Source: Escherichia coli (GTDB lineage Bacteria; Pseudomonadota; Gammaproteobacteria; Enterobacterales; Enterobacteriaceae). From it: DNA of 64,000 nucleotides. The position numbers and the translations under genes are program-made. The DNA lies in the NCBI RefSeq assembly GCF_001677475.2, contig NZ_CP015229.1; one strand, given 5' to 3'. Under the pieces are notes generated by a model that was not told the origin of the DNA, ran no database searches, and saw only the letters and a list, made by a program, of their open reading frames with translations. Positions 34,569 through 63,147 of this stretch are shown here, piece by piece. Each line of letters begins with the position of its first letter. The stretch's first letter is position 1.

Positions 34569-35093
34569 ATGGCTAAACCAGCAAAACGAATCAGGAATGC
34601 CGCAGCAGCTTATGTTCCTCAATCCCGCGATGCCGTGGTGTGTGATATTCGCTGGATTGGTGACCTGCAACGCGAAGCGGTACGACTTGAAACGGAAATG
34701 AATGACGCTATTGCTGAAATTACGGAGAAATACGCCTCACGGATTGCGCCGCTTAAAACCCGTATTGAAACCCTTTCAAAAGGCGTTCAGGGGTGGTGTG
34801 AAGCGAACCGTGACGAACTGACGAACGGCGGCAAGGTGAAGACGGCCAACCTGGTAACCGGTGATGTGTCATGGCGTCAGCGCCCACCATCAGTAAGTAT
34901 TCGCGGTGTGGATGCGGTGATGGAAACGCTGGAGCGTCTTGGCCTGCAACGCTTTATTCGCACGAAACAGGAAATCAACAAGGAAGCGATTTTACTGGAA
35001 CCGAAAGCGGTCGCAGGTGTTGCCGGAATTACAGTTAAATCAGGCATTGAAGATTTTTCTATTATTCCGTTTGAACAGGAAGCCGGTATTTAA
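34569..35093 (+). CDS. gam: Host-nuclease inhibitor Gam (Mu Gam family)
   Basis: 174 aa, same length as Mu Gam and matching recalled sequence character. Confidence 0.88.
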   Translation: MAKPAKRIRNAAAAYVPQSRDAVVCDIRWIGDLQREAVRLETEMNDAIAEITEKYASRIAPLKTRIETLSKGVQGWCEANRDELTNGGKVKTANLVTGDVSWRQRPPSVSIRGVDAVMETLERLGLQRFIRTKQEINKEAILLEPKAVAGVAGITVKSGIEDFSIIPFEQEAGI

Positions 35094-35191
35094 TACCACC
35101 ACGAATATTTAATTAGTTCACTTTCTTTTAATTATGGCGCGATGCGTCAGGGGATTGCTCGCGCCTGAATCTGATATACGGGATATAAAAA

Positions 35192-35734
35192 ATGATTAAT
35201 ACAAAAGTTCTGAGCGGCGTCAGCACATTATTACAGGTTTACGGGCGTCTGACCTGCGGCGTACTGGCTGAAAAAATGAAGATGCCACCTTCCTCAATGG
35301 TGTATTTCCTGCGTGATGCGGTTGATGCCGGAGTTCTCACTGAATGCAACGGATTTTATGACGTTCCGCGCCCTCGTCCGACGCCGCCAGTAATACGAAA
35401 CGCAACAACGGAGCACCCCGATGTTGATGATGCTCAATGGTGCGCGTTCCGCCGCTCTTTGCCCTGGCTGGAAGGCAATGCCATTCCGGCACTGGCAAAA
35501 GAATTTGCGACAGGCGTACTGACCTGCGAGTCGGTTTACATCGTTGCTGAAGTGGATGACGATATGTGCAAACAGGGAATGCCCCGTTTTGTGATGGCTT
35601 ATATCGATATCCGGCTGGGTCGTTTTATTTGTGGCTCCAGTGGCTGGAATATCACCGACCACATCCTGCGCTATCTCATTCTTGATTATTCACCAGCTCC
35701 GGCAGCAACACAGGAAGTCAGTGAACATGATTAA
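35192..35734 (+). CDS. Hypothetical early protein
   Basis: 180 aa; no recognisable motif. Confidence 0.55.
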   Translation: MINTKVLSGVSTLLQVYGRLTCGVLAEKMKMPPSSMVYFLRDAVDAGVLTECNGFYDVPRPRPTPPVIRNATTEHPDVDDAQWCAFRRSLPWLEGNAIPALAKEFATGVLTCESVYIVAEVDDDMCKQGMPRFVMAYIDIRLGRFICGSSGWNITDHILRYLILDYSPAPAATQEVSEHD

Positions 35735-35909: not shown

Positions 35910-36228
35910 ACCAGAGAATAAAGAAATGAAATTCACACCAGTTGATATTGATGGCGTCATGGCTAATTTAAAGATGCTGGAACGTATGCACGATATCGTT
36001 AAATATGGTATTGAGCATGACCTCACCGCCAGAGAAGTCCGGAGCATTATTAACCGTGAAATGAACCAGGTGGAAGCTGCCGTGGCGCTACAAAATGAAG
36101 CAGCCCGCGAGGAATACATTCGTCGCAGGCTGGGACTATCAAATAAAGATATTCTTACGGATGCTCAGATGGCTGAGGCTTTTGATATTCATCAGAATCT
36201 TGGTCTAACAAACGGATGGTATCAGTGA
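35902..36228 (+). CDS. Hypothetical early protein
   Basis: 108 aa from ATG 35902 with GAGGT Shine-Dalgarno. Confidence 0.5.
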   Translation: MNKPENKEMKFTPVDIDGVMANLKMLERMHDIVKYGIEHDLTAREVRSIINREMNQVEAAVALQNEAAREEYIRRRLGLSNKDILTDAQMAEAFDIHQNLGLTNGWYQ

Positions 36229-36421
36229 TTAGCTGTGATATTTGCAGAATGGGATTATTCGTTGTTCTCAATGCCGGAGCCTCTGCCGCTCCGCTTGCTG
36301 CGGCTTCGAGGATCGTTTTGCCTTCCTCTGCGGTAATCAGCCCCTTTCTGACAAGGAGTATCAGCAACCTTGAAGCAATGACATACCCTGCAACATCATA
36401 AGGCTGTTCACTGTTTTTCAT
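36155..36421 (-). CDS. Hypothetical antisense-oriented small protein
   Basis: 88 aa from ATG (complement of 36419-36421) with GAGGA Shine-Dalgarno 7 nt upstream on the reverse strand; 3' end overlaps the preceding plus-strand ORF by 74 nt. Confidence 0.35.
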   Translation of the reverse strand: MKNSEQPYDVAGYVIASRLLILLVRKGLITAEEGKTILEAAASGAAEAPALRTTNNPILQISQLITDTIRLLDQDSDEYQKPQPSEHP

Positions 36422-36494
36422 AAAAAGTTTCCTCTGTTTAGTGAGTGGATTCTGGCGGTGTTGCCGCACCGCCCCCTTTTCTGGAGGTACGATA

Positions 36495-37046
36495 ATGAAT
36501 CGCACATCCCTGATTAAATTAATTCATGTCGCCCGTCGTGATCTACAACTCGACGATGACACTTACCGCGCCTTTCTGGTGCAGTGCACAGGCAAGACCA
36601 GCTGCCGCGAGCTGTCCGTTGCACAACTGGAACGTGTGCTCGATGCCATGAAAGAGTGCGGTTTTAAAAAGCAGAAAAAACATCCCCGCCGTCGCTTTAA
36701 GGGGCATGTCACACCGCGCGAGAAGATTTATAAAATCTGGCAGCAGATGTTTCAGGATGGCTTTATCGCTGATGGCAGCGATGTCGCGCTGGACAAATAC
36801 GTTGCACGCCTGACGGCCAGACGTAATGGCGGTCAGGGGGTTTCCACGCTGGCCTGGTGTCACGGGGAATCGTTGCAGGTTGTGCTCGAAACGCTCAAGC
36901 AGTGGCACATGCGCTGCATCCGGGAAGCCTTTGCCCGACATGGTGTGCCGTTACCTGCAAGCCCATCCGGGCGGGAACTACGCGGATATGATGCACTGAC
37001 CAGTGCATATGCCCGCGCACGAAACAGCGGGAGAATTGCTGTATGA
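36495..37046 (+). CDS. gemA: GemA-family protein (Mu gp16-like)
   Basis: 183 aa from ATG 36495 with GGAGGT Shine-Dalgarno; position upstream of mor. Confidence 0.8.
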   Translation: MNRTSLIKLIHVARRDLQLDDDTYRAFLVQCTGKTSCRELSVAQLERVLDAMKECGFKKQKKHPRRRFKGHVTPREKIYKIWQQMFQDGFIADGSDVALDKYVARLTARRNGGQGVSTLAWCHGESLQVVLETLKQWHMRCIREAFARHGVPLPASPSGRELRGYDALTSAYARARNSGRIAV

Positions 37047-37492
37047 AACAGATGAAAGAGCAGGATTTATTCGAAGACCTTCGGGACGACAGCGTTCTGG
37101 AATATCTTCATGATTACCAGGAAAACACCGCTTATCCGGCGTTACTTTCTGAACTGAACGCACTGCTGCGTAAAGAGCTGGCCCGGATTGGCGCAGACCC
37201 TGCTCATTCCCTTGAGCTGGTTGTGGCGATTTGTCGCCATATCGGCGGGATGCAGGTTTATGTTCCGAGGGGGAATATTCTGGAGAATCTTGTCCGGGAT
37301 ATGCGTATCTGGCGTGATTTTAACGGTCATAATATTCCTGAACTGGTTCAGCGTTACGGGGTGACGTATAAAACCGTCTACAAGGCCATCAAACGGATGC
37401 GACGTCTGGAGCGCAATAAATACCAGCCGGATTTGTTTTACCCCTCCCCGAACCTGCCTCACCCCGTTCGTCGTCCACCACGACGCCCTTAA
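37043..37492 (+). CDS. mor: Mor transcription activator (Mor/C family)
   Basis: 149 aa; sequence closely matches recalled Mu Mor (DLFEDLRDDSVLEYL, VVAICRHIGGMQVYVPRG, YKAIKRMRRL). Confidence 0.88.
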   Translation: MKQMKEQDLFEDLRDDSVLEYLHDYQENTAYPALLSELNALLRKELARIGADPAHSLELVVAICRHIGGMQVYVPRGNILENLVRDMRIWRDFNGHNIPELVQRYGVTYKTVYKAIKRMRRLERNKYQPDLFYPSPNLPHPVRRPPRRP

Positions 37493-37500
37493 TCAATGAA

Positions 37501-37522
37501 GCCGGTAAATCCGGCTTTTTTT
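37501..37522 (+). terminator. Rho-independent terminator after mor
   Basis: GCCGG-TAAAT-CCGGC hairpin followed by a run of seven T. Confidence 0.6.
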
Positions 37523-37577
37523 ATGCCTCCGGCACCATGAAGCAGACCACGTTTAAATCTGCTTCACAGGTGCTTTT

Positions 37578-38174
37578 ATGGAAAATCAAAAATTCTCCCC
37601 GGCCTTTGAACATGCGCTGAATTTCATTCTGCGTCCCGATATCGAAGGCGTCTATGCCAATGACCCCACTGACCGTGGCGGTGAAACCAAATACGGCATT
37701 TCTGACCGCCGCGACGGTGTGACTGACGGCAAAACCGATGTCAACGGCGACGGCAAACCGGATACCCGCATCAGGGATTTAACCCGCGAACAGGTTGCTC
37801 AGATTTACTGGCGCGATTACTGGCTGCCTGCCGGATGTGACCAGTGGCCTGATGGCGTGGCGATGTTTGTGTTCGATGCGGCGGTTCAGCATGGCGTTAA
37901 AAAAGCTATCAGGATTTTGCAGGAAGCCGCGGATGTGGATGCTGACGGCATCATCGGCCCCCGTACCCGTAAGGCCGTGAGCCTGTCCACCCCGGACTGG
38001 CTGCTGGCCCGCTGCATTGTCCGTCGTTCCCGCTTTTATGCCGACATCATCAAGTCCAAACCCGCCCAGGGCAAATACCTGAACGGCTGGTTTAACCGCA
38101 TGGAAAAGCTGACCGACGCCTGTCTGGAAATCATCGATACCCCTCCAGGCATCATGTCCGCCACGCGGGGGTGA
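37578..38174 (+). CDS. Endolysin, glycoside hydrolase family 108 with C-terminal peptidoglycan-binding domain
   Basis: 198 aa; motif EGVYANDPTDRGGETKYGIS matches the GH108 family signature EGGY.NDP.DPGGETN.GI; DGIIGPRT in the C-terminal domain. Confidence 0.8.
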   Translation: MENQKFSPAFEHALNFILRPDIEGVYANDPTDRGGETKYGISDRRDGVTDGKTDVNGDGKPDTRIRDLTREQVAQIYWRDYWLPAGCDQWPDGVAMFVFDAAVQHGVKKAIRILQEAADVDADGIIGPRTRKAVSLSTPDWLLARCIVRRSRFYADIIKSKPAQGKYLNGWFNRMEKLTDACLEIIDTPPGIMSATRG

Positions 38175-38175
38175 T

Positions 38176-38427
38176 ATGGGCAAAGGCTGGGATGCCTCTC
38201 TGAAAGCCGGGCGGCGCGACCGCCTGCGTCAGGAGGTTCTGCACCGCATGGCCGGAGGTCCGCCCCCGAAACCGCTGGACTATACCGGCCATGACGGCAC
38301 ACACGCCAGCTACTACATGCGTGGCTGGAACTCCGTGGATACACGGGACATTTTCTGGCAGTGCCAGAAGTACAGGGAAAAATTCAATGTGGAAAAAGGT
38401 TATGAACAAAATTTTAAAACTGTGTGA
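38176..38427 (+). CDS. Hypothetical protein in lysis region
   Basis: 83 aa; starts 2 nt after the endolysin stop; overlaps the next ORF. Confidence 0.4.
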   Translation: MGKGWDASLKAGRRDRLRQEVLHRMAGGPPPKPLDYTGHDGTHASYYMRGWNSVDTRDIFWQCQKYREKFNVEKGYEQNFKTV

Positions 38428-38812
38428 CTGGCTGATTTGTTCCCGACTGATGAGAACCCCATGGCCGCTGGCCGGACTGACGCTCTGTATGTTCATCATC
38501 AGCATGTTATGTGGCTGGCGATCGTTCGTGTTGATGTTGTTGTCCTTTGCCGGGGTGGTGTTGTTTTCATACAGCGCAAGCCTCGGGAATGTGCCATTTC
38601 GCCTGCTGCCTGAGGTCCGTTACCGGGCTTTTGGTCGCCACATCATCGTGTGGTCATGGGTGGTCTGGGCGCTGGGATATTTCTGCTGCGTCTTCAGCAC
38701 GCTGATGATGATGTCACCGGCACACCCGGTGTTCTGGCTGTGTGGTGGCGGTTGCGGCGCTCTGCTCTGTCTTCAGCGTTATCTGTATGGAGGTTTCCCG
38801 TGGATCCGTTAA
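38402..38812 (+). CDS. Polytopic small membrane protein (holin-like or exclusion-like)
   Basis: 136 aa from ATG 38402; three to four hydrophobic helices; lysis-region context. Confidence 0.5.
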   Translation: MNKILKLCDWLICSRLMRTPWPLAGLTLCMFIISMLCGWRSFVLMLLSFAGVVLFSYSASLGNVPFRLLPEVRYRAFGRHIIVWSWVVWALGYFCCVFSTLMMMSPAHPVFWLCGGGCGALLCLQRYLYGGFPWIR

Positions 38813-39408
38813 CCCTTTCAGGCATCGCCTCCGTTCTGCTGAAAGCCGGGCCGGGGCTGATTCGTTCCGTCGGGCGCTGGTTTGGTGGCGGTACATCTGC
38901 CGCCGCTGACTCGGTGGCCGGTATGGTGGAAAGCGTCCGGGAAAGCCTGCCGGTGGCTGAACAGCAGCGCGTTCTGGAACAGAAGATGGCGATGTTACCA
39001 CCGGAACAACAGATACAACTGGAAACCCTGAAAATTCAGCTGCAACAACTGGAGGTGGAGCGGCAGAAGCTGGTGCTGGCTGACCAGCAGGCCGCACACC
39101 ACGAACAGCAGGAAACCATCCGCAATGGTGACAACGCCACGGACAGCTATGTGCGCCAGACGCGCCCGCTGCTGGCCCGCCTTTCCTGTTACAGCGGTCT
39201 GGCCTATGTGCTGTTGCTCTCCTGCGGCCAGATTGCCGGAGCCGTTGCCGGTGCCAGAGGTATCACGCTGCATATGCCAACACCGGACTGGGATATCACG
39301 CTGATGTTGCTTACCCCTGCGCTGGGCTATCTCGGCGTGCGAACCCTTGACGGCTTTGCCCGTTACAGCAAATCAAGCCGTCACAAAATGTCTGCGGGGC
39401 TGAAATGA
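38800..39408 (+). CDS. Lysis-associated membrane protein with coiled-coil N-terminus and C-terminal transmembrane segments
   Basis: About 202 aa if initiated at GTG 38800 (overlaps preceding stop); Q/L-rich heptad region then two hydrophobic helices; start uncertain (internal ATGs at 38920 and 38984). Confidence 0.45.
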   Translation: MDPLTLSGIASVLLKAGPGLIRSVGRWFGGGTSAAADSVAGMVESVRESLPVAEQQRVLEQKMAMLPPEQQIQLETLKIQLQQLEVERQKLVLADQQAAHHEQQETIRNGDNATDSYVRQTRPLLARLSCYSGLAYVLLLSCGQIAGAVAGARGITLHMPTPDWDITLMLLTPALGYLGVRTLDGFARYSKSSRHKMSAGLK

Positions 39409-39632
39409 CCGATGAAATCGACCGCATCAGTGAAGTGGTTCTGAACGAGCGTCAGTGCGTCGTTAAAGCCTGGCAGACGCGGACAAAAGAAGCGCCCCAC
39501 AGTCGGGGCTTCTGCAATGACTGCGGGAACGTTATTCCGGCACAGCGCCTTGCGGCGCTGCCGGATGTGGTGACCTGTATTGACTGCCAGCAGATGCGTG
39601 AGCGCAGGAGGAAGACATGTCCTGGGAAGTGA
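39405..39632 (+). CDS. TraR/DksA-family C4 zinc-finger protein
   Basis: 75 aa; CNDCGNVIP...CIDCQ four-cysteine motif characteristic of the DksA/TraR zinc finger. Confidence 0.7.
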   Translation: MTDEIDRISEVVLNERQCVVKAWQTRTKEAPHSRGFCNDCGNVIPAQRLAALPDVVTCIDCQQMRERRRKTCPGK

Positions 39633-39922
39633 TCCGGGCCAACTGGCCCATTTTATGGGCGCTGTTGATGACAGCGATAAATTTGCTTCAGCTGATTCTG
39701 GCAAAGACTTACGTCAAACGCGAAGAGTTTGATTCGCTGCGTTCCCGTGTGTCGGTGATGGAAGGTCTGGTGAATCAGCTCCCCGACCGCAATGAATTTC
39801 ACCGCCTGCAACTGGATATCAGCAACCTGCGGGGCGAAATCCGGGAACTGGGGCCATCCATACGCCAGGTTTCCCGCATCAGTGATTTGTTATTAGAGAA
39901 CGAGTTAAAGGTAAAAAATTAA
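39617..39922 (+). CDS. Membrane-anchored coiled-coil protein (i-spanin/Rz-like)
   Basis: 101 aa; N-terminal transmembrane helix (ILWALLMTAINLLQLILA) followed by coiled-coil-like sequence. Confidence 0.5.
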   Translation: MSWEVIRANWPILWALLMTAINLLQLILAKTYVKREEFDSLRSRVSVMEGLVNQLPDRNEFHRLQLDISNLRGEIRELGPSIRQVSRISDLLLENELKVKN

Positions 39923-40215
39923 TGGCGATGAAAGAGATCCTCACTGAAGACCGTCGTCTGGTGTTGCTGCGTTCCCTGCTGGACTGTGGCGACAGCGCGA
40001 ATGAATCCGTGTTGCAGACCTGCCTTCAGGCTTATGGTCATAAGGTATCCCGTGATGTGGTGCGCACCCAGCTTGCATGGCTTCGCGAGCAGGGGTTGGT
40101 TCGTCTGTCTGATGTGGGCGGCTGTTACGTGGCTGAAATCACCGGCAGCGGCGAGGATGTGGCAAACGGCCTGTCCAGCGTTCCGGGCGTTAAAAAACCC
40201 CGTGCGAGGGGCTGA
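39922..40215 (+). CDS. Hypothetical phage protein
   Basis: 97 aa; translationally coupled to the preceding ORF. Confidence 0.5.
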   Translation: MAMKEILTEDRRLVLLRSLLDCGDSANESVLQTCLQAYGHKVSRDVVRTQLAWLREQGLVRLSDVGGCYVAEITGSGEDVANGLSSVPGVKKPRARG

Positions 40216-40217
40216 GC

Positions 40218-40517
40218 ATGGCCCGAAAACTGAAGCCGTTAAGTCGCGGAGAACGGGCCGTCGTGCGGCAACTGGCGTACTGCCTTGTGCTGGCAGATAT
40301 TGAGCAAAACGCCATTGTCCGTGCATACGAACAACAGACCGGAAAGCCCTGGAGCCCGGATGCACCGGACAGCCCCATGAAACGCTTTCTGCGGTCATCA
40401 CCGGCATGTGCGCGGCTGTGGAAGCTGCTGGGTAAGGATATCCGGTCCGTTCGCGAAGAAATATACGCCGGTCTGAAAACACCGGGAACTGAAGACGGGG
40501 GCCGTCGTGAACCGTAA
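40218..40517 (+). CDS. Hypothetical phage protein
   Basis: 99 aa. Confidence 0.5.
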   Translation: MARKLKPLSRGERAVVRQLAYCLVLADIEQNAIVRAYEQQTGKPWSPDAPDSPMKRFLRSSPACARLWKLLGKDIRSVREEIYAGLKTPGTEDGGRREP

Positions 40518-40654
40518 AAAGAATCCGATAAGTAAAGCGTCCCGTGATGAACTCCGCCGTCTGGCGCACAACCTGACATGGCGGGAAATCCAGAGCGGCG
40601 CGCTGAAATCTGCATACGAAAGTTTACAGCGTAGTGAGCAACAGGAGGGCAAAC

Positions 40655-41236
40655 ATGGAAAATGAACAACGCCCCACCCGTGGCCGTCTTTCCAAAGTGG
40701 ATTTACTCCCGGACAGCATCCGGGAGCAGTTGCATCAGATGCTGCGGGAAAAGCGGCACACGCAGGAAGAAATCCGCGAAGCCATCAACGCCCTGATTGA
40801 CGAACACAACCTGCCGGAAGAGATGCAGTTAAGCCGGACGGGTTTAAACCGTTATGCCAGCCGCATGGAAAAAGTCGGGGCCAAAATCCGCGCCTCCCGC
40901 GAAATGGCCGAAGTCTGGGCGGCAAAGCTGGGTTCCGCGCCAACATCAGACGTCGGCAGGCTGCTGATGGAGTTTGTAAAAACGCTGGCCTTTGAAACGT
41001 CCATGTCGATGGCAGAAGACGACAAACCTGTAGCACCAAAGGCGCTGGGGCAACTGGCGCTGGTTGCCCAGCGTCTGGAAGCGGCAGCCATGACCAGCCA
41101 TAAACGCGAGAAAGCGATCCGCGATGCGTTTGCACAGGAGATGGCTGAGAAAACCGAAGAGCTGGTCAGAACGGGTGGTCTGTCAGGCGGTGCGGCTGAC
41201 ACCATCAAACGAGACATTCTGGGGATTAGCGCATGA
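40655..41236 (+). CDS. Mu gp27-like protein (putative terminase small subunit)
   Basis: 193 aa from ATG 40655 with AGGAGGG Shine-Dalgarno; directly upstream of the large terminase and overlapping its start. Confidence 0.6.
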   Translation: MENEQRPTRGRLSKVDLLPDSIREQLHQMLREKRHTQEEIREAINALIDEHNLPEEMQLSRTGLNRYASRMEKVGAKIRASREMAEVWAAKLGSAPTSDVGRLLMEFVKTLAFETSMSMAEDDKPVAPKALGQLALVAQRLEAAAMTSHKREKAIRDAFAQEMAEKTEELVRTGGLSGGAADTIKRDILGISA

Positions 41237-42768
41237 CACAGATGAACACGTTCAGTGAATCCGATGTTCTGCTGCCGTATCAGAAACGCTGGGTGGCGGA
41301 TGATTCAAAACTGAAAATCGCCGAGAAATCACGCCGTACCGGGTTAACCTGGGCGGAAGCGGCAGATGCAGCACTGACCGCATCACTGAAGAAGGAAAAC
41401 GGCGGGCGCGATCACTTTTATATCGGTTCGAATAAGGAGATGGCCCGCGAATTTATCGACGCCGTAGCGATGTGGGCGAAAGCGTTTAATGCGGCAGCGG
41501 AAGAAATCCGCGAGGAAGTGATCACCGACGAAGACATGGACATTCTGACGTTCGTCGTGTACTTCGCCAGCGGTTTTAAGGTCAAGGCGCTGTCCAGCAA
41601 TCCGGGCAACATTCGCGGGATGCAGGGGAATGTCACCATCGACGAAGCGGCGTTTCATGAAAAACTGGATGAGGTACTCAAGGCGGTCACACCACTGACC
41701 ACGTGGGGCGGTAAGGTTCGCCTTATCTCCACCCATGACGGCGTGGACAACCCGTTTAACCAGCTGATTCAGGAGAGCCGCGCAGGCAAAAAAGATTACC
41801 GTATTCACACCATCACGCTGGATGACGCCTGCAGTGACGGGCTGTACCGGCGTATCTGTCAGGTACGCGGCATGGAGTGGTCACCGGAGGCCGAGGCGGA
41901 ATGGAAAGAAGGCCTGCTGCGAAATACCGCCACCCGCGAAGACGCCCTGGAGGAATATTACTGCGTCCCGAAAAACGGCGGCGGCACGTATATCCCCCGC
42001 TCAATGCGTGAACGTGCAGCCCGTGGCACCGGAAAAGTGTTGCGCTTTACCGGCACACCGGAATTTAACGCACTGACGGAAAGCCAGCGCCGGGCAGATA
42101 TCCGGGAATGGCTGGAAACGGTGGTGCGCCCTGAACTGGAAAAACTCCCACAGAACCTGCGCCACTGTCTGGGGGAAGACTTTGCGCGTTCGGGTGACCT
42201 GACTGTGCTGGCCCCGGTGACGGTGAACGACGACACCACCCGCGAGGTGCCGTTCCTGGTTGAGCTTGCCAATGTGCCGTTTAAACAGCAGGAGCAGGTA
42301 CTGTTCTGGCTTTGCGATCGTCTGCCCCGTCGTGACGGCATCAAAATGGATGCGCGGGGGAATGGTCAGTATCTGGCAGAACAGGCGGCGGAGCGGTACG
42401 GCGACGAGGTGGAACAGGTGATGCTGTCCGTGGCGTTTTACCGTGAAAACATGCCCCGTTTCCGTGCGGCGTTTGAAGATGATGAGCTGATCCTTCCGAA
42501 GCATGAAGACGTGATCAATGACCTCGGGGCCATTCAGTTACTGCGTGGCGTTCCCGGCATTGATGATTCACGAACCAGAGGCAGCGACGGTCACAAACGT
42601 CACGGCGACGCCGCTGTGGCCATTTTCCTGGGCTTCCTTGCCAGTAAAGATGACTGCCACCGTTACGAACTGCACCGTCTGAACCGCCCGGCGAAACCGG
42701 AAGAACGCAACGCGCGCCGCCAGCTGAAGCTGACGCGCGGCCTGAAAAATGAGGGAGGTTTACTGTGA
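41233..42768 (+). CDS. Terminase large subunit (Mu gp28 family)
   Basis: 511 aa; position and sequence character. Confidence 0.88.
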   Translation: MTQMNTFSESDVLLPYQKRWVADDSKLKIAEKSRRTGLTWAEAADAALTASLKKENGGRDHFYIGSNKEMAREFIDAVAMWAKAFNAAAEEIREEVITDEDMDILTFVVYFASGFKVKALSSNPGNIRGMQGNVTIDEAAFHEKLDEVLKAVTPLTTWGGKVRLISTHDGVDNPFNQLIQESRAGKKDYRIHTITLDDACSDGLYRRICQVRGMEWSPEAEAEWKEGLLRNTATREDALEEYYCVPKNGGGTYIPRSMRERAARGTGKVLRFTGTPEFNALTESQRRADIREWLETVVRPELEKLPQNLRHCLGEDFARSGDLTVLAPVTVNDDTTREVPFLVELANVPFKQQEQVLFWLCDRLPRRDGIKMDARGNGQYLAEQAAERYGDEVEQVMLSVAFYRENMPRFRAAFEDDELILPKHEDVINDLGAIQLLRGVPGIDDSRTRGSDGHKRHGDAAVAIFLGFLASKDDCHRYELHRLNRPAKPEERNARRQLKLTRGLKNEGGLL

Positions 42769-44336
42769 ACCAGAAACAACAGGCCGGGGCCGCACGCCGT
42801 CTGCTGAACCCGGCAACCGGTGAGGAAGACACGCTGAAAAAAGAGGCGCTCAACGAAGCACAGGCCCGTCCGCGTCAGGCTGGCGTGCGTCCGGCCTCGC
42901 CGGGCATCAGCATCGCCTCCGGGCTGAATCCCGGCAGGCTGGCAGGCATTCTGCGCAATGCCGCCAACGGTATCACGCGTGATTTTTTTATCCTTGCCGA
43001 AGAGATGGAAGAACGCGATTTGCATTACGCCTCGGTGCTGCGCACCCGCAAGCTGACGGTGGCGGGTATTGAACCGGTGGTGGTGGCTGCCAGTGATGAC
43101 GATGCCGACGTACAGCTGGCGGATGCCATACGTGCGCTGATGGAAGCCCCGCAAATCCCCGAGCTGATGTTTGATTTGCTCGACGGGCTGGGAAAAGGCG
43201 TGGCGGTCTGTGAAATTTTGTGGAACACCCGCAACAACCACTGGGTGCCCCGTGATTATGAGTGGGTTGATCCCCGTTTTCTGAAAGCCGAAAAGCCCAC
43301 TCTGCGCCGGTTCCGCCTGCTGACTGACGATGAACCGGTGGATGGCGTACCGCTGACACCGGGAAAATTCATTGTTCACCAGCCGCGTCTGAAATCCGGT
43401 CTGCCGCTGCGTAACGGTCTGGCCCGTCTGGTGGCTGTGATGTATATGCTGAAATCCTTTACCGTGCGTGACTGGTGGGCATTTGCGGAAAAATTCGGCA
43501 TTCCGGTTACGGTGGGGAAATACGGTCCCAACGCCACGGAGGAGCAAATCCGCGTGCTGATTGATGCGATTGCCTCCATTGCCTCAGATGCCGGGTGTGC
43601 CATTCCGCAGTCCATGCAACTGGAGATGCAGGAAACCGCCAGCCGGAATAACGGCGGCGCGCTGTTCCGTGAAATGGCTGAATGGTGCGATGCGCAAATC
43701 AGTAAAGCCGTACTGGGGCAGACCATGACCACAGATAATGGCAGTTCGCGTTCACAGGCGGACGTGCACAATCAGGTGCGCATGGACATTGTGCGCTGGG
43801 ACGCGCGACAGCTGGCTAACACGCTGAATGAATATCTGGTGCGTCCCTACATCGAGGCCAACTACGGGCCACAGGCGCACTATCCCCGTGTTGTTCTGCG
43901 TATCAGTGAAGCCGAAGATCTGAAGGCGCTGACTGATGCTCTGGTGCCACTGATTGACCGGGGGATGCGGGTTCAGGAATCGGAGCTGCGGGATCGGTTC
44001 GGCCTGGCGGAACCGGACGAAGGGGCTGATGTTCTGCATCCGGTGTCTGCCGGAATGTCAGGTGATATGGCGATGAACCACGAGCGCGTCGCCCTGAACC
44101 GGGAACACCCCGACGAACTGGCACAGATGGTGGATGATGCCCTGCGTGACTGGCAGAAAACCGGCGAGGCGTTCACAAACCCGGTGCTGACACTGGCGCA
44201 GGAATGCGACAGTTTTGATGACTTTCTGAAACGCCTGCCTGAGCTTCAGGAAACGCTGAACGCGGACGACTTTGCCCTGCAACTGGCGGAGGTGTGCTTT
44301 AAGGCCCGTGCGCTGGGAGACACTGGTCATGCGTGA
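42765..44336 (+). CDS. Portal protein (Mu gp29 family)
   Basis: 523 aa; follows terminase with ATGA overlap. Confidence 0.88.
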   Translation: MNQKQQAGAARRLLNPATGEEDTLKKEALNEAQARPRQAGVRPASPGISIASGLNPGRLAGILRNAANGITRDFFILAEEMEERDLHYASVLRTRKLTVAGIEPVVVAASDDDADVQLADAIRALMEAPQIPELMFDLLDGLGKGVAVCEILWNTRNNHWVPRDYEWVDPRFLKAEKPTLRRFRLLTDDEPVDGVPLTPGKFIVHQPRLKSGLPLRNGLARLVAVMYMLKSFTVRDWWAFAEKFGIPVTVGKYGPNATEEQIRVLIDAIASIASDAGCAIPQSMQLEMQETASRNNGGALFREMAEWCDAQISKAVLGQTMTTDNGSSRSQADVHNQVRMDIVRWDARQLANTLNEYLVRPYIEANYGPQAHYPRVVLRISEAEDLKALTDALVPLIDRGMRVQESELRDRFGLAEPDEGADVLHPVSAGMSGDMAMNHERVALNREHPDELAQMVDDALRDWQKTGEAFTNPVLTLAQECDSFDDFLKRLPELQETLNADDFALQLAEVCFKARALGDTGHA

Positions 44337-45093
44337 AACCCTCATCCCGAAAGAGGCGCTGGCGTGGCTGAAGGCGAAGAAGCTGCGCCCCGGTTTTGAT
44401 TACCGGGATGTGTGGCGGGAAGAACACCGGAACAGCTTCACCGTGGCAAAAATGCTGCAACTGGATTTGTTGTCGGATGTGAAATCCCTTGTGGAAGACG
44501 CCCTGCAAAGCGGGCAGACGTTCAGCGAGTTCCGGGAGATGCTGCAACCGCTGCTGATAAAACGCGGATGGTGGGGCGTACAGGAGATGGATGATCCGCT
44601 GACGGGCGAAAGGCGCACCGTGCAACTGGGCAGCGACCGCCGCCTCCGCACGATTTTTGACACCAACATGCGCACCGCCCGCGCGGCGGGCCAGTGGGAA
44701 CGCATTCAGCGGACAAAGCGGGCCATGCCGTATCTGATTTATGAGCTGGGGCCATCCCGCGAGCACCGGGCGGAGCATGTGAAATGGGCGCGTCTGTGTC
44801 TGCCTGTAGACCACCCGTTCTGGCAGACGCATTTCGCCCCTAACGGCTGGGGCTGCAAATGCACCATCCGTCAGGTCAGCCGTGGTGAGTATGCGCAACT
44901 GGCGGCACAGGGCACCATTCACACCGAAGCGCCGGAAATCAGGACTGTCCGCTGGGTGAACAAACGTACGGGCGAAGAGGAAGAGGTGCCGGAAGGGATT
45001 GATCCGGGCTGGAACTACAATCCCGGTATAAACCGTGAGCAGGAGCTGGCGCGCCAGCTGGCGACAAAACAGGCCCGTTTTGACAGTGAGTAA
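44329..45093 (+). CDS. Head morphogenesis protein (Mu F family)
   Basis: 254 aa from ATG 44329 overlapping the portal stop. Confidence 0.85.
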   Translation: MRETLIPKEALAWLKAKKLRPGFDYRDVWREEHRNSFTVAKMLQLDLLSDVKSLVEDALQSGQTFSEFREMLQPLLIKRGWWGVQEMDDPLTGERRTVQLGSDRRLRTIFDTNMRTARAAGQWERIQRTKRAMPYLIYELGPSREHRAEHVKWARLCLPVDHPFWQTHFAPNGWGCKCTIRQVSRGEYAQLAAQGTIHTEAPEIRTVRWVNKRTGEEEEVPEGIDPGWNYNPGINREQELARQLATKQARFDSE

Positions 45094-45235
45094 CCCTCCC
45101 GCCGTAAATCCCCCTGAAACGCATCAGAAACGCGTTTTTTATTCTGATGGCGTGAATGTGCATTCTGACGTTTTTGAAGATGCTGTGGCGTTTTTGAAGG
45201 GGTTTTGAAGGGGGTATTTCCCCGTTTTCAGTGAA

Positions 45236-45257
45236 GCCGGTAAATCCGGCTTTTTTT
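45236..45257 (+). terminator. Rho-independent terminator after F; same sequence as the one after mor
   Basis: GCCGG-TAAAT-CCGGC plus seven T; 26 bp identical to 37497-37522. Confidence 0.6.
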
Positions 45258-45306
45258 CTGCCTTCCGCATACTGACCGTCGGTAACCCCAGACGACGGAG
45301 ACTGAC

Positions 45307-46263
45307 ATGCAACCGGAACTGCTGGCGCTGTGTTTTTCCCTGCCAGAACCCATCCCTGAGCTGACACCTGCTCAACTGCCGGAATGGCTCGAACTTGTCC
45401 CTGCGGGTGAGTTCACCGGGCGCGATGGCCGGACGTGGATTAACCGCAATCCGCATGAGGTGGTTGCCCGTTCGTCCGGCATCAAAATTCCGGTGGATAT
45501 TGAACACGCCACCGAAATTAAAGGCCCGCGTGGTGAAGATGCTCCGGCGTATGGCTGGGTGGAAGAACTGCGGGTGACGGACAGCAGCACCATTGAAGGG
45601 CGTGTTGTCTGGAGCGAGTCCGCCCGCTGGATGCTGAGCGAGCGCCGCTACCGCTATTACAGCCCGGCGTTTTTCTTTGACGCGGAAGGCGTAGTGACGC
45701 GCCTGTCCAGCGTCGGGCTGACCAACAAACCTAACCTGGATTTTCCTGCACTGAATACGGAGAAAAACCTGATGACAGTACCTGTGCAAATCACCGGCCT
45801 GCTTGGGCTGGCTGAATCTGCCACGGTGGACGATACCGTGGCCGCCATTAAACAACTTCAGGAGAACGAACAGGTGGCGCTGAACCGCGCACAGACACCT
45901 GATCTGACGAAGTTTGTGCCGGTGGAAACCCACAATCTGGCCCTGAACCGTGCCGAAACCGCAGAACAACGCCTTCAGCAACTTGAAGAGAAGGAAGCAG
46001 AAGCGCTTGTGGATGCGGCCATCGAAGCCGGAAAAGTGGCCCCGGCAAACCGTGACATGTTCCTTGCCACCTGCCGCACGGAAGAAGGCCGCAAACAGTT
46101 TGCGGAGTACACCAGAGGCGCACAGCCGCTGGTGAACAACGACAAGCCCAGCCAGGGCAAGGATAAACCCGCGCAGACACTGACCGACACCGAACTGGCG
46201 ATGTGCCGCAGCATGGGTATTACCGGGGAAGAGTTCCTCGCCGCTAAACCGAAACAGGAGTAA
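45307..46263 (+). CDS. Head protease/scaffold protein (Mu I family)
   Basis: 318 aa; immediately upstream of the major capsid gene. Confidence 0.8.
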   Translation: MQPELLALCFSLPEPIPELTPAQLPEWLELVPAGEFTGRDGRTWINRNPHEVVARSSGIKIPVDIEHATEIKGPRGEDAPAYGWVEELRVTDSSTIEGRVVWSESARWMLSERRYRYYSPAFFFDAEGVVTRLSSVGLTNKPNLDFPALNTEKNLMTVPVQITGLLGLAESATVDDTVAAIKQLQENEQVALNRAQTPDLTKFVPVETHNLALNRAETAEQRLQQLEEKEAEALVDAAIEAGKVAPANRDMFLATCRTEEGRKQFAEYTRGAQPLVNNDKPSQGKDKPAQTLTDTELAMCRSMGITGEEFLAAKPKQE

Positions 46264-46270
46264 GTAACAC

Positions 46271-47176
46271 ATGTCACAGACTATCAGTTCTGAAATCCTT
46301 CATGCACTGACCACCTGCCTGAGCGCCGCCTTTACCCGTGGACTGAGTGGTGTCGAACCGCAGTGGAATCGTATTGCTTCTGAGGTGCCGAGTTCGTCCG
46401 CCTCCAACACCTACGGCTGGATGAAAGATTTACCGGACATCAAAGAATGGGTCGGTGAGCGTCAGCTGGCAACGCTGGACGGTTATGGTTACACCATCAC
46501 CAACAAACTCTGGGAAAGTTCCATTCGCGTTAAGCGCGAACACATTGAAGATGACCAGATAGGTCAGTACAGCATTACCGCCGAACGCTATGGCCGTATG
46601 ACTGCTGTGTTCCCGGACAAGCTGTGTTACGCCCTGTTGTGTGCCGGGTTTAACACCCTGTGCTTTGACGGCCAGAACTTCTTTGATGAAGACCACCCGC
46701 TGGGCGACGGCACCTACAGCAACGTTGTCGGTACACCAGGAACGGACCAGGGCGAACCGTGGTTTCTGATTGATGAGTCGCAGGTGCTGAAACCCATCAT
46801 CTGGCAGACGCGACGCGCCTTTAAATTTGAAGCCCTGGACGATCTGAACAGCGAGCACACCTTCAAGAACCACGAGTTCCTGTACGGCGTGGACGGTCGC
46901 TGTAATGCGGGCTTCGGCTTCTGGCAGACCGCCGTCGGTTCCCGTGCAGCACTGACGGTGGAGAACTACAAAAAAGCCAATGAGTTGCTGCGGGGCATGA
47001 AGGGCACCAACGGTGAGCCGCTGGGCATCCGCCCGACCACCCTTGTGGTGGGGCCGAAAAACCGTGCGGACGCGAAGCTCATTATTGACGCCATGCTGGT
47101 TAACGGCGGCGATTCCAACATCTGGTACAAGGATGTGGAGATCGTGGACAGCCCGTACATCACCACCCCGGCATAA
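46271..47176 (+). CDS. Major capsid protein (Mu T family)
   Basis: 301 aa; position and sequence character. Confidence 0.88.
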   Translation: MSQTISSEILHALTTCLSAAFTRGLSGVEPQWNRIASEVPSSSASNTYGWMKDLPDIKEWVGERQLATLDGYGYTITNKLWESSIRVKREHIEDDQIGQYSITAERYGRMTAVFPDKLCYALLCAGFNTLCFDGQNFFDEDHPLGDGTYSNVVGTPGTDQGEPWFLIDESQVLKPIIWQTRRAFKFEALDDLNSEHTFKNHEFLYGVDGRCNAGFGFWQTAVGSRAALTVENYKKANELLRGMKGTNGEPLGIRPTTLVVGPKNRADAKLIIDAMLVNGGDSNIWYKDVEIVDSPYITTPA

Positions 47177-47200
47177 CCCGTCATCCGTAATCTGTAACCC

Positions 47201-47236
47201 GCAGTTAAAAGGCGCTGCGAATGCCCTTTTAACTGC
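47201..47236 (+). terminator. Stem-loop after the major capsid gene (terminator or attenuator candidate)
   Basis: GCAGTTAAAAGG...CCCTTTTAACTGC inverted repeat 25 bp after the capsid stop, followed by the palindrome GCCTTTTAAAAGGC. Confidence 0.4.
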
Positions 47237-47254
47237 CTTTTAAAAGGCAGAGTC

Positions 47255-47566
47255 ATGAGTGAAAAAGCAGGAACCAAAGGCGCGAAAGCCGCAAAGAACA
47301 GCGCTGCACAGGAAAACCCGGCACCGCTGGCAGACGTTATTGTGGCTGACGGTCAGGCGAATGAACCACGTCCGGCTGAAGACCCGGTTGCTGTACAGGG
47401 TGACGCCCCTGTCCGGCTGAACGTCCGGGCCGTGTCTGAAAACGGGTTCTGGCGCTGTGGCCGTTTCTGGTCACATGCCGGTGAGAATGTGGCGGTGATC
47501 GCTGCGGTTGCCACCCGCCTGATGGCAGAGCCGAATCTGATTGTCCGGGAAGCGGAGAAAGGCTGA
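47255..47566 (+). CDS. Hypothetical head-region protein
   Basis: 103 aa, Ala/Pro-rich N-terminus. Confidence 0.5.
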   Translation: MSEKAGTKGAKAAKNSAAQENPAPLADVIVADGQANEPRPAEDPVAVQGDAPVRLNVRAVSENGFWRCGRFWSHAGENVAVIAAVATRLMAEPNLIVREAEKG

Positions 47567-51184: not shown

Positions 51185-51580
51185 ATGGCCGCGATGGAAT
51201 TTGAACTGAAACACGGGCTTCTGACCGGCAAAGGCACGGCAGATGAAACCCTGCATAAAACCGTGAAGCTGCGCGAACTGACTGCCAGTGATGTGATTGA
51301 TGCGCAACTGGCCGCAGAACGCGTCGTCATGGGCGGGAACGGAAAGGCGGTGGCCTACTGCTCTGAAGTGCTGATGGGGCTGGAGATGATGCGCCGTCAG
51401 GTTGCGGCCATCGGCAGTATTCCCGGCCCGCTGGACATGAAACAGTTGCGAATGCTCCACCCCGCAGACCTTGAGCTTATCAGCACGAAAGCTGCTGCGC
51501 TGGATGACATGCTTGAGGAGGTGGCAACGCGGGGGCGAACTGATGCCGCTGGCGGCGGCACTGATGAACCTGCTGGTTAA
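51185..51580 (+). CDS. Tail assembly chaperone
   Basis: 131 aa between tube and tape measure; an overlapping ORF in another frame (51471..51680) ends just inside the tape-measure gene. Confidence 0.7.
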   Translation: MAAMEFELKHGLLTGKGTADETLHKTVKLRELTASDVIDAQLAAERVVMGGNGKAVAYCSEVLMGLEMMRRQVAAIGSIPGPLDMKQLRMLHPADLELISTKAAALDDMLEEVATRGRTDAAGGGTDEPAG

Positions 51581-51666
51581 CCTGTCTTCGAGATTCAGCA
51601 TTCAGTACCTGGAACAGCTGCCCCTGCGGCAGCTGTTCCGCCTGATAAAGCAACTGGAGAAACAGC

Positions 51667-53514
51667 ATGGCAACAGGTAACCGTCTCAGCACGGAAATCA
51701 TGATCAACCTTGCCGGGAACCTGACCGCCAAAGCCCGGCAGTACGGCGCAAATATGTCGCAGTTCGCCCGGAACCATCAGAAGGCTATGAGCCTTGTCAA
51801 AGCCACAACGGAGGCCGCAGGACGCGGCCTTGATACGCTTGGTAACCGCTACACGGCAATGATAGCCGGGCTTGGCAGTAGTCTTACCATCAAACAGGTT
51901 GCCGATTTTGATGCGCAGATGCGCCGGATGGGTACGGATGCCCAGTTAACCACTGAACAGGTAAAGACGCTTCACGACAAAATCAGGGATGTATCGAACC
52001 AGAAAGATATTCGTATTGATGCTTCTGCGCTTGGTCAGGGGGCCAGCGAACTTCTGGGGAAAACCGGTGATTATCAGTATGTGGTGGACAACCTCCGCAA
52101 CATGGGGTTGATGATGCAGGCGTTCGGTGTTGACGGACAGGTTGCAGCCGGGCTGATGGCCCAGTTCTGGGAAAAAAACGTCCGGGGTGCTGAGGCGGTC
52201 AATAACATGATGGACAGGCTGTATTCGCAGTTCGCAGTGGGGTCTGTTAGCGTTGCCGATGTTGCCCGCGCTGCCCCGAAACTGTTTTCCATCATTCAGG
52301 ATCAGGGACCGGAAGCCATTGCCCAGATGGGGGCATTTGCTCAGGTGTTCGCCAAAAACAAAGGCAGCATTGATGAGACGGTAACCAGTATTCAGGCCAT
52401 GTATGCTTCCCTGTCGGACAAAAAGAACATCGAGTTCCTGAAAAAAAACGGCATTGACGTTTTTGTCAAAGGCACAAAAGACATCAAAAAGCCCTATGAG
52501 CTGATGATGGAAATCCTTAAACGGGCCAAATACGATCCGCTGAAACTTCAGGATGTGTTTGATCTGACCGGAATGCAGGGGATTAAGGCGCTGCTTAACC
52601 CTGAAAACCGGCAACTGATGGAACAAATGATTTACGGCACGATTGAGCTGGGTTCCACGCAAAAGGCCGCACAGACCAATGCCGAAGGCTTTAATGCCGC
52701 AATACAGTCACTGAATAACGAATGGCAACGTTTTGCTGAAGGACAACTGGCAAAACCCGTTCAGGAGCTGGCGGATGCGCTCAACAGCGTGGACCAGCAT
52801 ACCGTCCAGAACTGGTTGCAGGTCGGTAAATATATGGCGATTGCTGTGGGCGGCATTATCGCCATCAGAAAAACGTACCAGTTAGGTAAAACCCTCCACG
52901 ACATCATGAATCCCAAAGGGAAAGGCAAAGGAATACCCGGTGCCATTACTGACGTTTTTGGTTCCGGCGTGATACCTGTTTATGTGGTCAATATGGGCAG
53001 CTTTGGTCCGGGTAAGGACGGTGGTCTGCCGGATCTCCCTGACCTCCCGGAGTTACCGGAAAACTCCGGCGGTTCAGGTAACGGTCGGGGACGTTTTATA
53101 GGGAAAATCCTCGGTCCTGTGCTGGGGGCAATGGCTGTAAAAGAGCGTCTGGAAACACTATACGCCCTGCCGGATGAAACAGACTCACTCACGAAATCTG
53201 TGGCTGCTGACCCCAGCGCCAGCCCGTGGGAGCGCGAGTTCGCGCAACAAAGTCAGGACAACCAGAAAGCGCTCGAGTCCGTCTGGCGTAAGGTAACGGA
53301 CTGGTTCAGTTCGCTGGGTGACAAGAACATTGCTGACCCGCGACCGTGGGCAGGTATGCAGGGCACACAGAATTATCCTTTCCTTCCGCAGCAGTTGCAG
53401 GGGGAAATCCGTGTGGTGGTGGAAGGTGACGCCCGCGTGAAAAGTGTCAGAGTGGATCAACCCGGCGTCAGACTCAGTGCGCAGGCTGGCGTCACCAGCG
53501 TGGAGCAAGGGTAA
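51667..53514 (+). CDS. Tail tape measure protein
   Basis: 615 aa; position. Confidence 0.85.
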   Translation: MATGNRLSTEIMINLAGNLTAKARQYGANMSQFARNHQKAMSLVKATTEAAGRGLDTLGNRYTAMIAGLGSSLTIKQVADFDAQMRRMGTDAQLTTEQVKTLHDKIRDVSNQKDIRIDASALGQGASELLGKTGDYQYVVDNLRNMGLMMQAFGVDGQVAAGLMAQFWEKNVRGAEAVNNMMDRLYSQFAVGSVSVADVARAAPKLFSIIQDQGPEAIAQMGAFAQVFAKNKGSIDETVTSIQAMYASLSDKKNIEFLKKNGIDVFVKGTKDIKKPYELMMEILKRAKYDPLKLQDVFDLTGMQGIKALLNPENRQLMEQMIYGTIELGSTQKAAQTNAEGFNAAIQSLNNEWQRFAEGQLAKPVQELADALNSVDQHTVQNWLQVGKYMAIAVGGIIAIRKTYQLGKTLHDIMNPKGKGKGIPGAITDVFGSGVIPVYVVNMGSFGPGKDGGLPDLPDLPELPENSGGSGNGRGRFIGKILGPVLGAMAVKERLETLYALPDETDSLTKSVAADPSASPWEREFAQQSQDNQKALESVWRKVTDWFSSLGDKNIADPRPWAGMQGTQNYPFLPQQLQGEIRVVVEGDARVKSVRVDQPGVRLSAQAGVTSVEQG

Positions 53515-55858: not shown

Positions 55859-56385
55859 ACGCCATTGCCCGCCGTCTGCGACTGATGGTTGACCGTGCCA
55901 TTGTCCGCATGGTGTCTGACAGTCTGGAGCGGCAGAACCTGCAAATCCAGACGCTGGCAGATGCCACCGACGACGACGTGGAACGCTTCCAGAACTACGG
56001 TTTTACATCCGTGCCGCCGGAAGGTTCTGAAGCCATAGTGCTGGCCGTTAGCGGGCGGCGTGACGGGCTGGTTGCCATCGCGGTGGAGGACAAGCGATGT
56101 CGCCCGAAAGGGCTGTCCCCCGGCGACGTCCGGCTGTATCACCAGGACGGCAAATCACATATCACGTTAAGGAAAGGCGGAATTATTGAAATCACAGGGG
56201 AACAATTAAACGTTTCAGGGAAAACGGTAAATCTCACCGCCGACGAATTACTGGCTATAAATGCAGGAAATATGAAATTCGTCGGTCCCTGTGAGTTTAC
56301 TGAAGATGTCAGAATCAACGGCAAATCTTTCAGCGAACACATTCATAAGGACGGCGACAATGAGAATACATCACCGCCCGTATGA
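55849..56385 (+). CDS. Baseplate assembly/spike protein (Mu gp45, gpV-like)
   Basis: 178 aa. Confidence 0.75.
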   Translation: MGLNAIARRLRLMVDRAIVRMVSDSLERQNLQIQTLADATDDDVERFQNYGFTSVPPEGSEAIVLAVSGRRDGLVAIAVEDKRCRPKGLSPGDVRLYHQDGKSHITLRKGGIIEITGEQLNVSGKTVNLTADELLAINAGNMKFVGPCEFTEDVRINGKSFSEHIHKDGDNENTSPPV

Positions 56386-62839: not shown

Positions 62840-62863
62840 GTCATCATTTTGTATAGTTTATAA

Positions 62864-62887
62864 CGATCGATACAATCGTATCGATCG
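62864..62887. promoter_or_regulatory. GATC-containing inverted repeat upstream of com/mom; candidate Dam-methylation-sensitive operator
   Basis: CGATCGATAC-AATC-GTATCGATCG; two GATC sites at 62865-62868 and 62883-62886, about 75-100 bp upstream of com. Confidence 0.5.
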
Positions 62888-62961
62888 TCAGTTTGCATCA
62901 TCTGTGATTAAATACCCTGGCCCTCAGGGCTATCGTATCTGGTTAATACACAGGTGGGATC

Positions 62962-63147
62962 ATGGATGCTGTTCGTTGTAAAAACTGCAATAAATTGCTG
63001 TTTAAAGGAAGTTTTAAGCATATAGAAATCAAATGCCCTCGTTGTAAACGTTACATTGTCATGTCGAGTGCCCGGGAGCATCCCACGGAGCTGTATTGTG
63101 GGAAAAGAGAAGAAATCACGCATCCTTACAAAACCCTGCGTTATTGA
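62962..63147 (+). CDS. com: Com zinc-finger translational activator of mom
   Basis: 61 aa; CKNC...CPRC...C..H zinc-finger pattern as in Mu Com; overlaps the mom start. Confidence 0.8.

Follow-up and report, generated by a model that had tools for sequence, protein, structure and literature searches.

A duplicated putative Mor-type promoter and a conserved hairpin in a Mu-like Escherichia coli prophage without a C-type activator gene

The window, i.e., the whole 64 kb stretch of Escherichia coli DNA analysed here, harbors a Mu-like prophage that begins at approximately 29.3 kb with the repressor gene, ner, A, and B; a Mu-like semi-essential region comes next. The gene mor closes the early region and overlaps the stop codon of gemA (Table 1). 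It encodes a protein of 149 aa, of which residues 31-131 match the Pfam family PF08765 (E 3.6e-30, 104.6 bits vs. a cut-off of 24.9). Judged by its identity of 63% to Mu Mor and of 32% to Mu C, and by its position directly after gemA, this gene is an orthologue of Mor rather than of C. Members of the Mor/C family comprise approximately 100-150 aa and are characterized by a C-terminal helix-turn-helix and an invariant GG..Y.P.G linker (PMC2582627). In the translation of the window Mor this linker reads HIGGMQVYVPRG, and partial matches to HTH_28 and HTH_23 were obtained by Pfam at residues 94-121. The helix-turn-helix and recognition region scarcely differs from that of Mu Mor, which fits the near-identical Mor box described below.

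The window Mor differs from Mu Mor by an excess of 20 aa and by its C-terminus (37418-37492), which carries the sequence QPDLF followed by a Pro/Arg-rich tail YPSPNLPHPVRRPPRRP. MuC depends on QPDLF, its C-terminal clamp-binding motif, for late transcription; the C-terminus of Mu Mor reads QPSLL (PMC12867686). The presence of QPDLF in the window Mor is weakly consistent with a direct role of this protein as late activator. As a marker of late-type activators the motif was discarded, since a Qxx[LM]F-like C-terminus is found in most single Mor proteins and is absent from many.

A preliminary description of this DNA had recognized a single ORF of the Mor/C family in the window and no C-type gene between mor and the lysis genes, and had named the ORFs 39922..40215 and 40218..40517 as places where a second homologue might be hidden. 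A profile built from Mu Mor, Mu C, their counterparts in Yersinia phages, and 21 C homologues was searched against all stop-to-stop segments of at least 25 aa in six frames of the full 64 kb. Only one match was obtained, at 36992-37489 (E 6e-50), with a runner-up at E ~4. No Pfam Mor domain was detected in 39922-40215, in 40218-40517, or in 17 further small ORFs. Together, the six-frame profile search and Pfam on 20 small ORFs bear out that mor is the only recognizable family member in the window, and that the endolysin gene follows it without an intervening C-type gene. Neither of the two suspected ORFs belongs to the family; the first is a homologue of Mu gp26. In the annotated E. coli relative KFu019 (approximately 96% identical), one Mor-family CDS is found likewise.

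Table 1. Genes and sequence elements from gemA to the head protease gene (all on the plus strand; promoter elements are predicted).
Position	Strand	Feature	Basis
36495..37046	+	gemA, homologue of Mu gp16	81% aa identity with Mu GemA; start from PGAP call in E. coli relative L003
37043..37492	+	mor, sole Mor/C-family gene in the window	PF08765, identity to Mu Mor, six-frame profile search
37495..37510	+	Putative Mor box AATGAAGCCGGTAAAT, 16-bp imperfect dyad with G/C-rich hexamer spacer	Aligns with Mu Pm AGTAAAGCCGGTTAAT
37498..37522	+	Intrinsic terminator, hairpin and T7 tract, overlaps the Mor box	8 pairs, T tail
37531..37574	+	Hairpin, core repeat 37538-37546/37558-37566 plus outer helix GGCACC/GGUGCU on the Shine-Dalgarno sequence	Folding, repeat search
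37533..37538	+	Predicted -10 hexamer CACCAT, 22 nt past the Mor box	Register of Mu TATCCT
37546	+	Predicted transcription start	Inferred; centre of Mor box set at -43.5 as in Mu
37578..38174	+	GH108 and PG_binding_3 endolysin, first gene of the proposed Mor-dependent operon	Pfam; ATG at 37578
38176..38427	+	Homologue of Mu gp18	69% identity, E 6e-38
38402..38812	+	Multi-pass membrane protein, positional counterpart of Mu gp19	Translation; weak gp19 match (E 0.011); CDS call in relative
38800..39408	+	Holin-like protein	Weak GTA_holin_3TM match (Pfam E 8e-4, below cut-off); CDS call in relative
39405..39632	+	TraR/DksA-type zinc-finger protein	PF01258, E 6.5e-11
39617..39922	+	DUF2730 protein, family of Mu gp25	PF10805, E 1.6e-29; Mu gp25 annotation has DUF2730
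39922..40215	+	Homologue of Mu gp26, winged helix-turn-helix, not Mor/C	59% identity with Mu gp26
40218..40517	+	ORF of 99 aa, not Mor/C	No Pfam family, no profile match
40655..41236	+	Homologue of Mu gp27 (small terminase)	PF11985, E 1.5e-54; 46% identity with Mu gp27
45221..45269	+	Copy 2 of the putative promoter cassette, 49 nt, 86% identical to 37486-37534	Repeat finder, direct repeat
45230..45245	+	Second putative Mor box AGTGAAGCCGGTAAAT	In alignment of 17 sequences; kept in diverged lineages
45268..45273	+	Predicted -10 hexamer CATACT, predicted +1 at 45281	In register with 37533-37538 and Mu Pm
45276..45298	+	Hairpin CCGTCG-N11-CGACGG, right arm overlaps Shine-Dalgarno GGAG	Repeat search, folding
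45307..46263	+	Head protease/scaffold gene, equivalent of Mu I, opens the head-tail operon	Annotation of relative ('phage protease'), followed by Mu gpT major head gene

With regard to the genes downstream of mor, the endolysin gene occupies the position given in the preliminary description. The comparison with Mu made there has to be corrected, as the following gene (38176-38427) is a homologue of gp18, which in Mu is the first gene of the middle operon. The endolysin itself is 73% identical to its counterpart in Yersinia phage vB_YpM_5, the product of a GH108 gene located after mor. Relative to Mu, the section from gp20 through C, Plys, and lys (encoding a SAR-lysozyme) to the spanin genes is absent, and holin-like and TraR-type genes are found instead. 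Sequences homologous to Mu reappear with gp26, gp27, and the terminase gene, and the homologues of gp25 to gp27 are followed by genes for terminase, portal, and F. From its gene content, the region after mor looks like a Mu middle operon fused to the late lysis and packaging operon. The lysis cassette (37578-39922) is composed differently from that of Mu, namely of the GH108 endolysin, a multi-pass membrane protein, a weakly holin-3TM-like protein, the TraR-type protein, and the DUF2730 protein, and no spanin pair was recognized in it. The position of the TraR/DksA-type gene is occupied likewise in Vibrio phage 1.028.O.

The 85-bp gap between mor and the endolysin gene contains a terminator followed by a 9-bp inverted repeat at 37538-37566, in the same order and at the same positions as reported earlier. 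The terminator hairpin is present (37498-37518, with the T7 tract at 37516-22; -12.6 kcal/mol, z -3.2), but its designation as a terminator missed a second property, which emerged when the gap was aligned with Mu and Yersinia phage vB_YpM_5. The Mor site of Mu is a 16-bp element with 5-bp inverted repeats separated by a G/C-rich hexanucleotide spacer and is centred at -43.5 (PMC4390567). A corresponding box is located on the terminator in the window (AATGA-AGCCGG-TAAAT at 37495, compared to AGTAA-AGCCGG-TTAAT in Mu), and the overlap of box and terminator is present in Mu Pm too. To the 3' side of the box, Mu and the window share CCGGC, the T7 tract, a G+C-rich stretch, and a -10 hexamer at a distance of 22 nt. 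When the -43.5 rule is applied to Mu, +1 falls on record position 9224, in agreement with the promoter annotated at 9163-9233. The hexamer at 37533 agrees with the -10 consensus at three of six positions, and no sigma-70 -35/-10 pair was found in the gap by a simple scan, as expected for an activator-dependent promoter. As this alignment shows, the gap is homologous to the Mu middle promoter Pm, and the terminator doubles as a putative Mor site. In many relatives (L004, L009, L040, L109, and others), approximately 0.5 kb with one extra ORF separates mor from the Mor-box promoter, to which mor is directly adjacent in the window type.

A second copy of the cassette is located in the 213-bp gap before the protease gene at 45307, i.e., at the position of Mu PI, so that each copy immediately precedes the first gene of an operon. 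The two copies, starting at 37486 and 45221, share 25 nt without mismatch, and both AGCCGGTAAATCCGGCT (17-mer) and TGAAGCCGGTAAAT (14-mer) are confined to two sites in the 64 kb, at 37.5 kb and 45.2 kb. Copy 2 contains a box (AGTGA-AGCCGG-TAAAT at 45230), a T7 tract, and a box-to-hexamer distance of 22 nt as well, and no sigma-70-type promoter was found in 44800-45500. For comparison, the sequence upstream of every protease homologue collected was taken. In the alignment of 17 sequences, the box positions, A2 and T6 of the hexamer, and the G directly after the hexamer are invariant columns. Upstream of the protease gene in diverged IMG/VR lineages, A-AGTGAAGCCGGTWAATCC, a spacing of 22-23 nt, and CAyACT are kept, whereas the right arm and the T-tract of the terminator have decayed at the same sites. 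Conservation of the Mor box despite decay of the terminator indicates selection on a protein site and not on the terminator. Conservation of the repeated element could nevertheless partly reflect its role as a terminator alone.

Just upstream of the second Mor box, whose left flank reads GTTTTCAGTGAAG, the direct repeats GTTTTTGAAG, GTTTTTGAAG, and GTTTTGAAGG are situated at 45170-45211, and they are conserved in relatives. Mor and C are reported to bind as tetramers, and given this mode of binding, the repeats could represent additional Mor half-sites.

A scan of IMG/VR for the box together with the T-tract returned 104 loci. At approximately 60 loci from many lineages, a GH108 gene comes immediately after the Mor-box element, and only one Mor/C gene is present in the locus; two Mor/C genes were observed in this survey only at Mu-type and vB_YpM_5-type loci. 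Several IMG/VR contigs carry two copies of the element at a distance of approximately 7.6-7.8 kb, as in the window. In a phage collection, 72 records with a Mor/C homologue were found. Among the records listed, two Mor/C genes are restricted to Mu, D108, SfMu, and Yersinia Mu-like phages, and isolated phages with one Mor/C gene exist. Of 5,426 complete E. coli genomes, 45-77 carry a prophage with this layout without C. The preliminary description had implied that this arrangement is unusual; it is in fact the majority state among Mu-like phages and is already in print for Mannheimia and Haemophilus phages (PMC4553209). In these Mu-like phages, Niu et al. observed a GH108 lys gene directly after mor and a missing C, and called for experiments on the replacement of C (PMC4553209). 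The phages concerned, 3927AP2, phiMhaMu2, and SuMu, share with the window the order of mor and a lys gene with GH108 and PG_binding_3 domains; unlike the window prophage, they lack com-mom, and their report gave no promoter analysis (PMC4553209). The window prophage is much closer to Mu than these phages are, with 81% identity for GemA and 69% for gp18.

Both copies of the putative promoter are accompanied by a hairpin. After mor, its core is the perfect 9-bp inverted repeat TGAAGCAGA-N11-TCTGCTTCA (37538-37566), and the left arm (37538-37546) extends from the last T of the -10 hexamer to the predicted +1. The chance expectation for a perfect 9-bp repeat with a spacer of at most 40 nt in the 85-bp gap is approximately 0.01, and given the comparative data a chance origin is untenable. 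The hairpin at 45276-45298 has exactly the same offset from the Mor box and a different sequence. In relatives, the stem at the protease promoter is longer (CTGTCCGTC...GACGGACAG) and covers the Shine-Dalgarno sequence. An 88-nt read-through RNA from the gap after mor folds with -33.8 kcal/mol (z -5.6), and the outer helix over 37569-37574 pairs the Shine-Dalgarno sequence.

The Mor-box promoters found were sorted into 30 sequence-distinct groups. Throughout these groups, stems with a 5' arm that begins within 0-4 nt of the last T of the hexamer are far commoner than in shuffled sequences (Fisher combined p 6e-17), and the arm sequences are unrelated between the groups. For 29 variants, the predicted accessibility of Shine-Dalgarno sequence and AUG is 0.34 with the native upstream part vs. 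0.52 in the promoter-initiated RNA, and 0.345 with the native 5' part vs. 0.457 with a shuffled one (Wilcoxon p 5e-6). The predicted masking is moderate, and none is seen in 5 of the 29 variants. The hairpin architecture is also present in Vibrio phage 1.028.O, the Mor of which is 34% identical; a motif common to both intergenic regions of this phage was not convincing. An Rfam search of 36000-46500 at a permissive threshold gave a chance-level match only.

In case of Mu itself, a 9-11 bp hairpin was observed just past the -10 hexamer of each of Pm, Plys, and Pmom (L001 4524-4570, L001 5757-5803, and L108 407-462, respectively), with z values of about -3.2 to -3.5. The 3' arm of the hairpin covers the start codon of the first gene at Pm and Plys.

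In Mu, the cascade leads in three tiers from the early genes via Mor and C to the late genes, Mor activating C and C activating the late promoters. In the window prophage, a single Mor protein probably drives both promoters directly in a two-tier cascade, in which the hairpin on read-through RNA would mask the Shine-Dalgarno sequence. Once made from the end of the early operon, Mor would occupy the two boxes and bring in sigma-70 RNA polymerase. Transcription from promoter 1 would cover the endolysin gene through the packaging genes, and transcription from promoter 2 the contiguous head genes and presumably the tail genes too, such that the cascade would run from early genes via Mor to everything late. 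What is observed comprises the sequence homology to Pm, the duplicated cassette, the lack of both C and C boxes, and the conservation in multiple lineages; from these we infer binding and activation by Mor and the start sites at both boxes. The C box, TTAT-N5-6-ATAA (PMC12867686), has two matches in the 64 kb, which corresponds to chance level, and none near 37578, 45307, or 62962. For late activation, the preliminary description had left the choice between Mor directly, the TraR-like protein, and an unrecognized factor. Of these, the duplicated Mor-box promoter and the lack of C boxes favor Mor acting directly.

As its left arm occupies the interval from the -10 hexamer to the predicted start, the hairpin would form only in RNA that reads through from upstream. 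In such RNA it would pair the Shine-Dalgarno sequence and thereby keep leaked transcripts untranslated, whereas promoter-initiated RNA would lack the 5' arm and be translated. With moderate confidence, and relying on start sites deduced from the geometry of Mu, we presume that any transcript leaking through the terminator is kept translationally silent by the hairpin. A comparable situation is the fold-back of IS10/Tn10, where a hairpin masks the ribosome site of the transposase on read-through RNA only and the 5' arm is located upstream of the element's own start site. By this analogy the window differs in that the 5' arm would be the -10/discriminator of the promoter itself and would serve in the temporal cascade of a phage. 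Considering this prophage and its relatives, the distant Vibrio phage, and Mu Pm and Plys, Mor/C-dependent promoters may generally carry a translational insulator formed by pairing of the -10/discriminator segment with the 5' UTR of the first gene, which would conceal the ribosome site or start codon, a generalization that we put forward tentatively and rate somewhat below even. If true, the temporal cascade, and lysis timing in particular, would be shielded from terminator leak. Such an insulator was not found described for Mu in the searchable literature. The same searchable literature likewise yielded no earlier account of the hairpin, nor one of Mor boxes placed in front of head genes.

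Other explanations of the repeated element have to be considered. The sequence GAAGCCGGTAAATCCGGCTTTTTTT might be a terminator only that is used twice, with the late switch exerted by the TraR/DksA-like protein, the gp26-like winged-helix protein, or an unrecognized protein. Both copies have good terminator scores, and the genes of the TraR-like and winged-helix proteins are conserved in position in a distant Vibrio Mu-like phage. However, the repeat runs past the hairpin on both sides and includes a -10-like hexamer in register, and diverged lineages have kept the Mor box and lost the hairpin. Furthermore, the TraR and gp26 genes are situated downstream of the first promoter and thus cannot start it, and gp26 occurs also in Mu, where C is the activator. 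We regard this explanation as improbable. Still less can be said for a defective derivative that has lost C and whose late genes need C from another Mu-type phage or stay off. The C-Plys-lys-spanin block is missing relative to Mu and vB_YpM_5, and the com-mom module is Mu-like, its Mu counterpart being dependent on C. Yet there are no C boxes on which a helper C could act, all ORFs are intact, and the layout without C recurs in the 45-77 complete E. coli genomes and dozens of IMG/VR lineages as well as in isolated plaque-forming phages of Vibrio, Pasteurella, and Burkholderia, which renders a defective state very improbable.

As to the hairpin, the repeat at 37538-37566 might not be a translational mask but the DNA operator of a dimeric repressor over the start site, or a stabilizer of the RNA 5' end. 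It is centred at approximately +7 from the predicted start, which is a classic operator position, and the analogous stem at Mu Pmom would be located mostly within the transcript. An operator is hard to reconcile with arm sequences that are wholly different between lineages and between both promoters of the window, while position and pairing are kept; variation of the arm sequence with conserved pairing points to structure rather than to recognition by a protein. With the geometry of Mu, the left arm is upstream of +1, and promoter-initiated RNA could not form the hairpin that a stabilizer would require. Thus, both variants seem rather unlikely, and the mask on read-through RNA is the preferred explanation.

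The direct action of Mor on two promoters, as proposed here, relates to the known systems as follows. With Mu Pm and Mor, the window shares the orthologous activator (63%) encoded after gemA, the 16-bp box on the early terminator, the spacer with T-tract and GC stretch, the -10 hexamer 22 nt past the box, the lack of a -35 element, and the gp18 homologue downstream. Different from Mu, where Pm drives a short operon ending in C, the promoter in the window would drive lysis and packaging genes, and the box is used twice, with copy 2 before the head-tail genes. With the Mu C system of Plys, PI, PP, and Pmom, the window would have in common the switch to lysis and morphogenesis, which is the role proposed for its Mor, and it shares the location of a promoter before the protease gene (PI in Mu) and the QPDLF C-terminus. 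It is unlike this system in lacking the C gene and C boxes and in that no tail promoter was found, and its Mor is only 32% identical to C. Yersinia phages vB_YpM_5/6 (Muvirus) resemble the window in that the GH108 gene and the gp18 homologue directly follow the Mor-box promoter. Unlike the window, they keep C and the Mu SAR lysozyme, the order in vB_YpM_5 being mor, GH108 gene, gp18 homologue, C, and Mu-type lysozyme gene, and the GH108 gene is part of a true middle operon. Phage vB_YpM_5 (L002 5065-6993) thereby contains two unrelated muralytic genes, GH108 before C and the Mu-type SAR lysozyme gene after C.

The adjacency of mor and lys without C was already known; new here are the duplicated Mor-type promoter and the conserved hairpin. 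To the question of what replaces C in Mu-like phages lacking it, the proposed answer is nothing, as a Mor-type promoter would front the late operons. This suggests that the three-step cascade of Mu is the exception and that two-step control by a single activator is common among the relatives of Mu. Defined by box, spacing, and -10 hexamer, the predicted Mor regulon provides a means of annotating such prophages, and the function of the conserved hairpin at Mor-box promoters is open to test in Mu itself.

Not all late genes are accounted for in the same way. Further Mor boxes that could serve the tail genes were found neither by mismatch searches nor by inspection in the gaps 35093-35192, 40517-40655, 47176-47255, and 51580-51667. 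As no separate tail promoter was found, a transcript of approximately 17.5 kb from 45281 must be assumed. A weak Mor-box-like word, AGGGAAAACGGTAAATCT, with TATTAT 23 nt further on, is present at 56215-56260 within a baseplate gene. Although an internal tail promoter is conceivable there, the word was set aside as a match at about chance level for the sequence searched.

The com-mom module (62962 onward, in the region 62840-63793) matches Mu with 88-89% identity, beginning at approximately codon 4 of com. The preceding 120 bp are unrelated to Mu Pmom and contain three GATC sites. Promoter mapping had been suggested earlier for the sequences upstream of 37578, 45307, and 62962; the first two have a Pm-type cassette, whereas the third, in front of com, lacks a Mor box as well as a C box. 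A candidate Mor box at 62890-62915 was rejected, as it consists of half-site-like words with the wrong spacing. The com-mom operon thus represents at least one late unit outside the Mor-box model. Among the 5,426 complete E. coli genomes, RM9088 is the only one with this exact junction.

Two hairpins next to each other, AGTTAAAAGG...CCTTTTAACT and GCCTTTTAAAAGGC, are located at 47195-47250, within the 79-bp gap that follows the major head gene, and these may constitute an attenuator between the head genes and the genes downstream.
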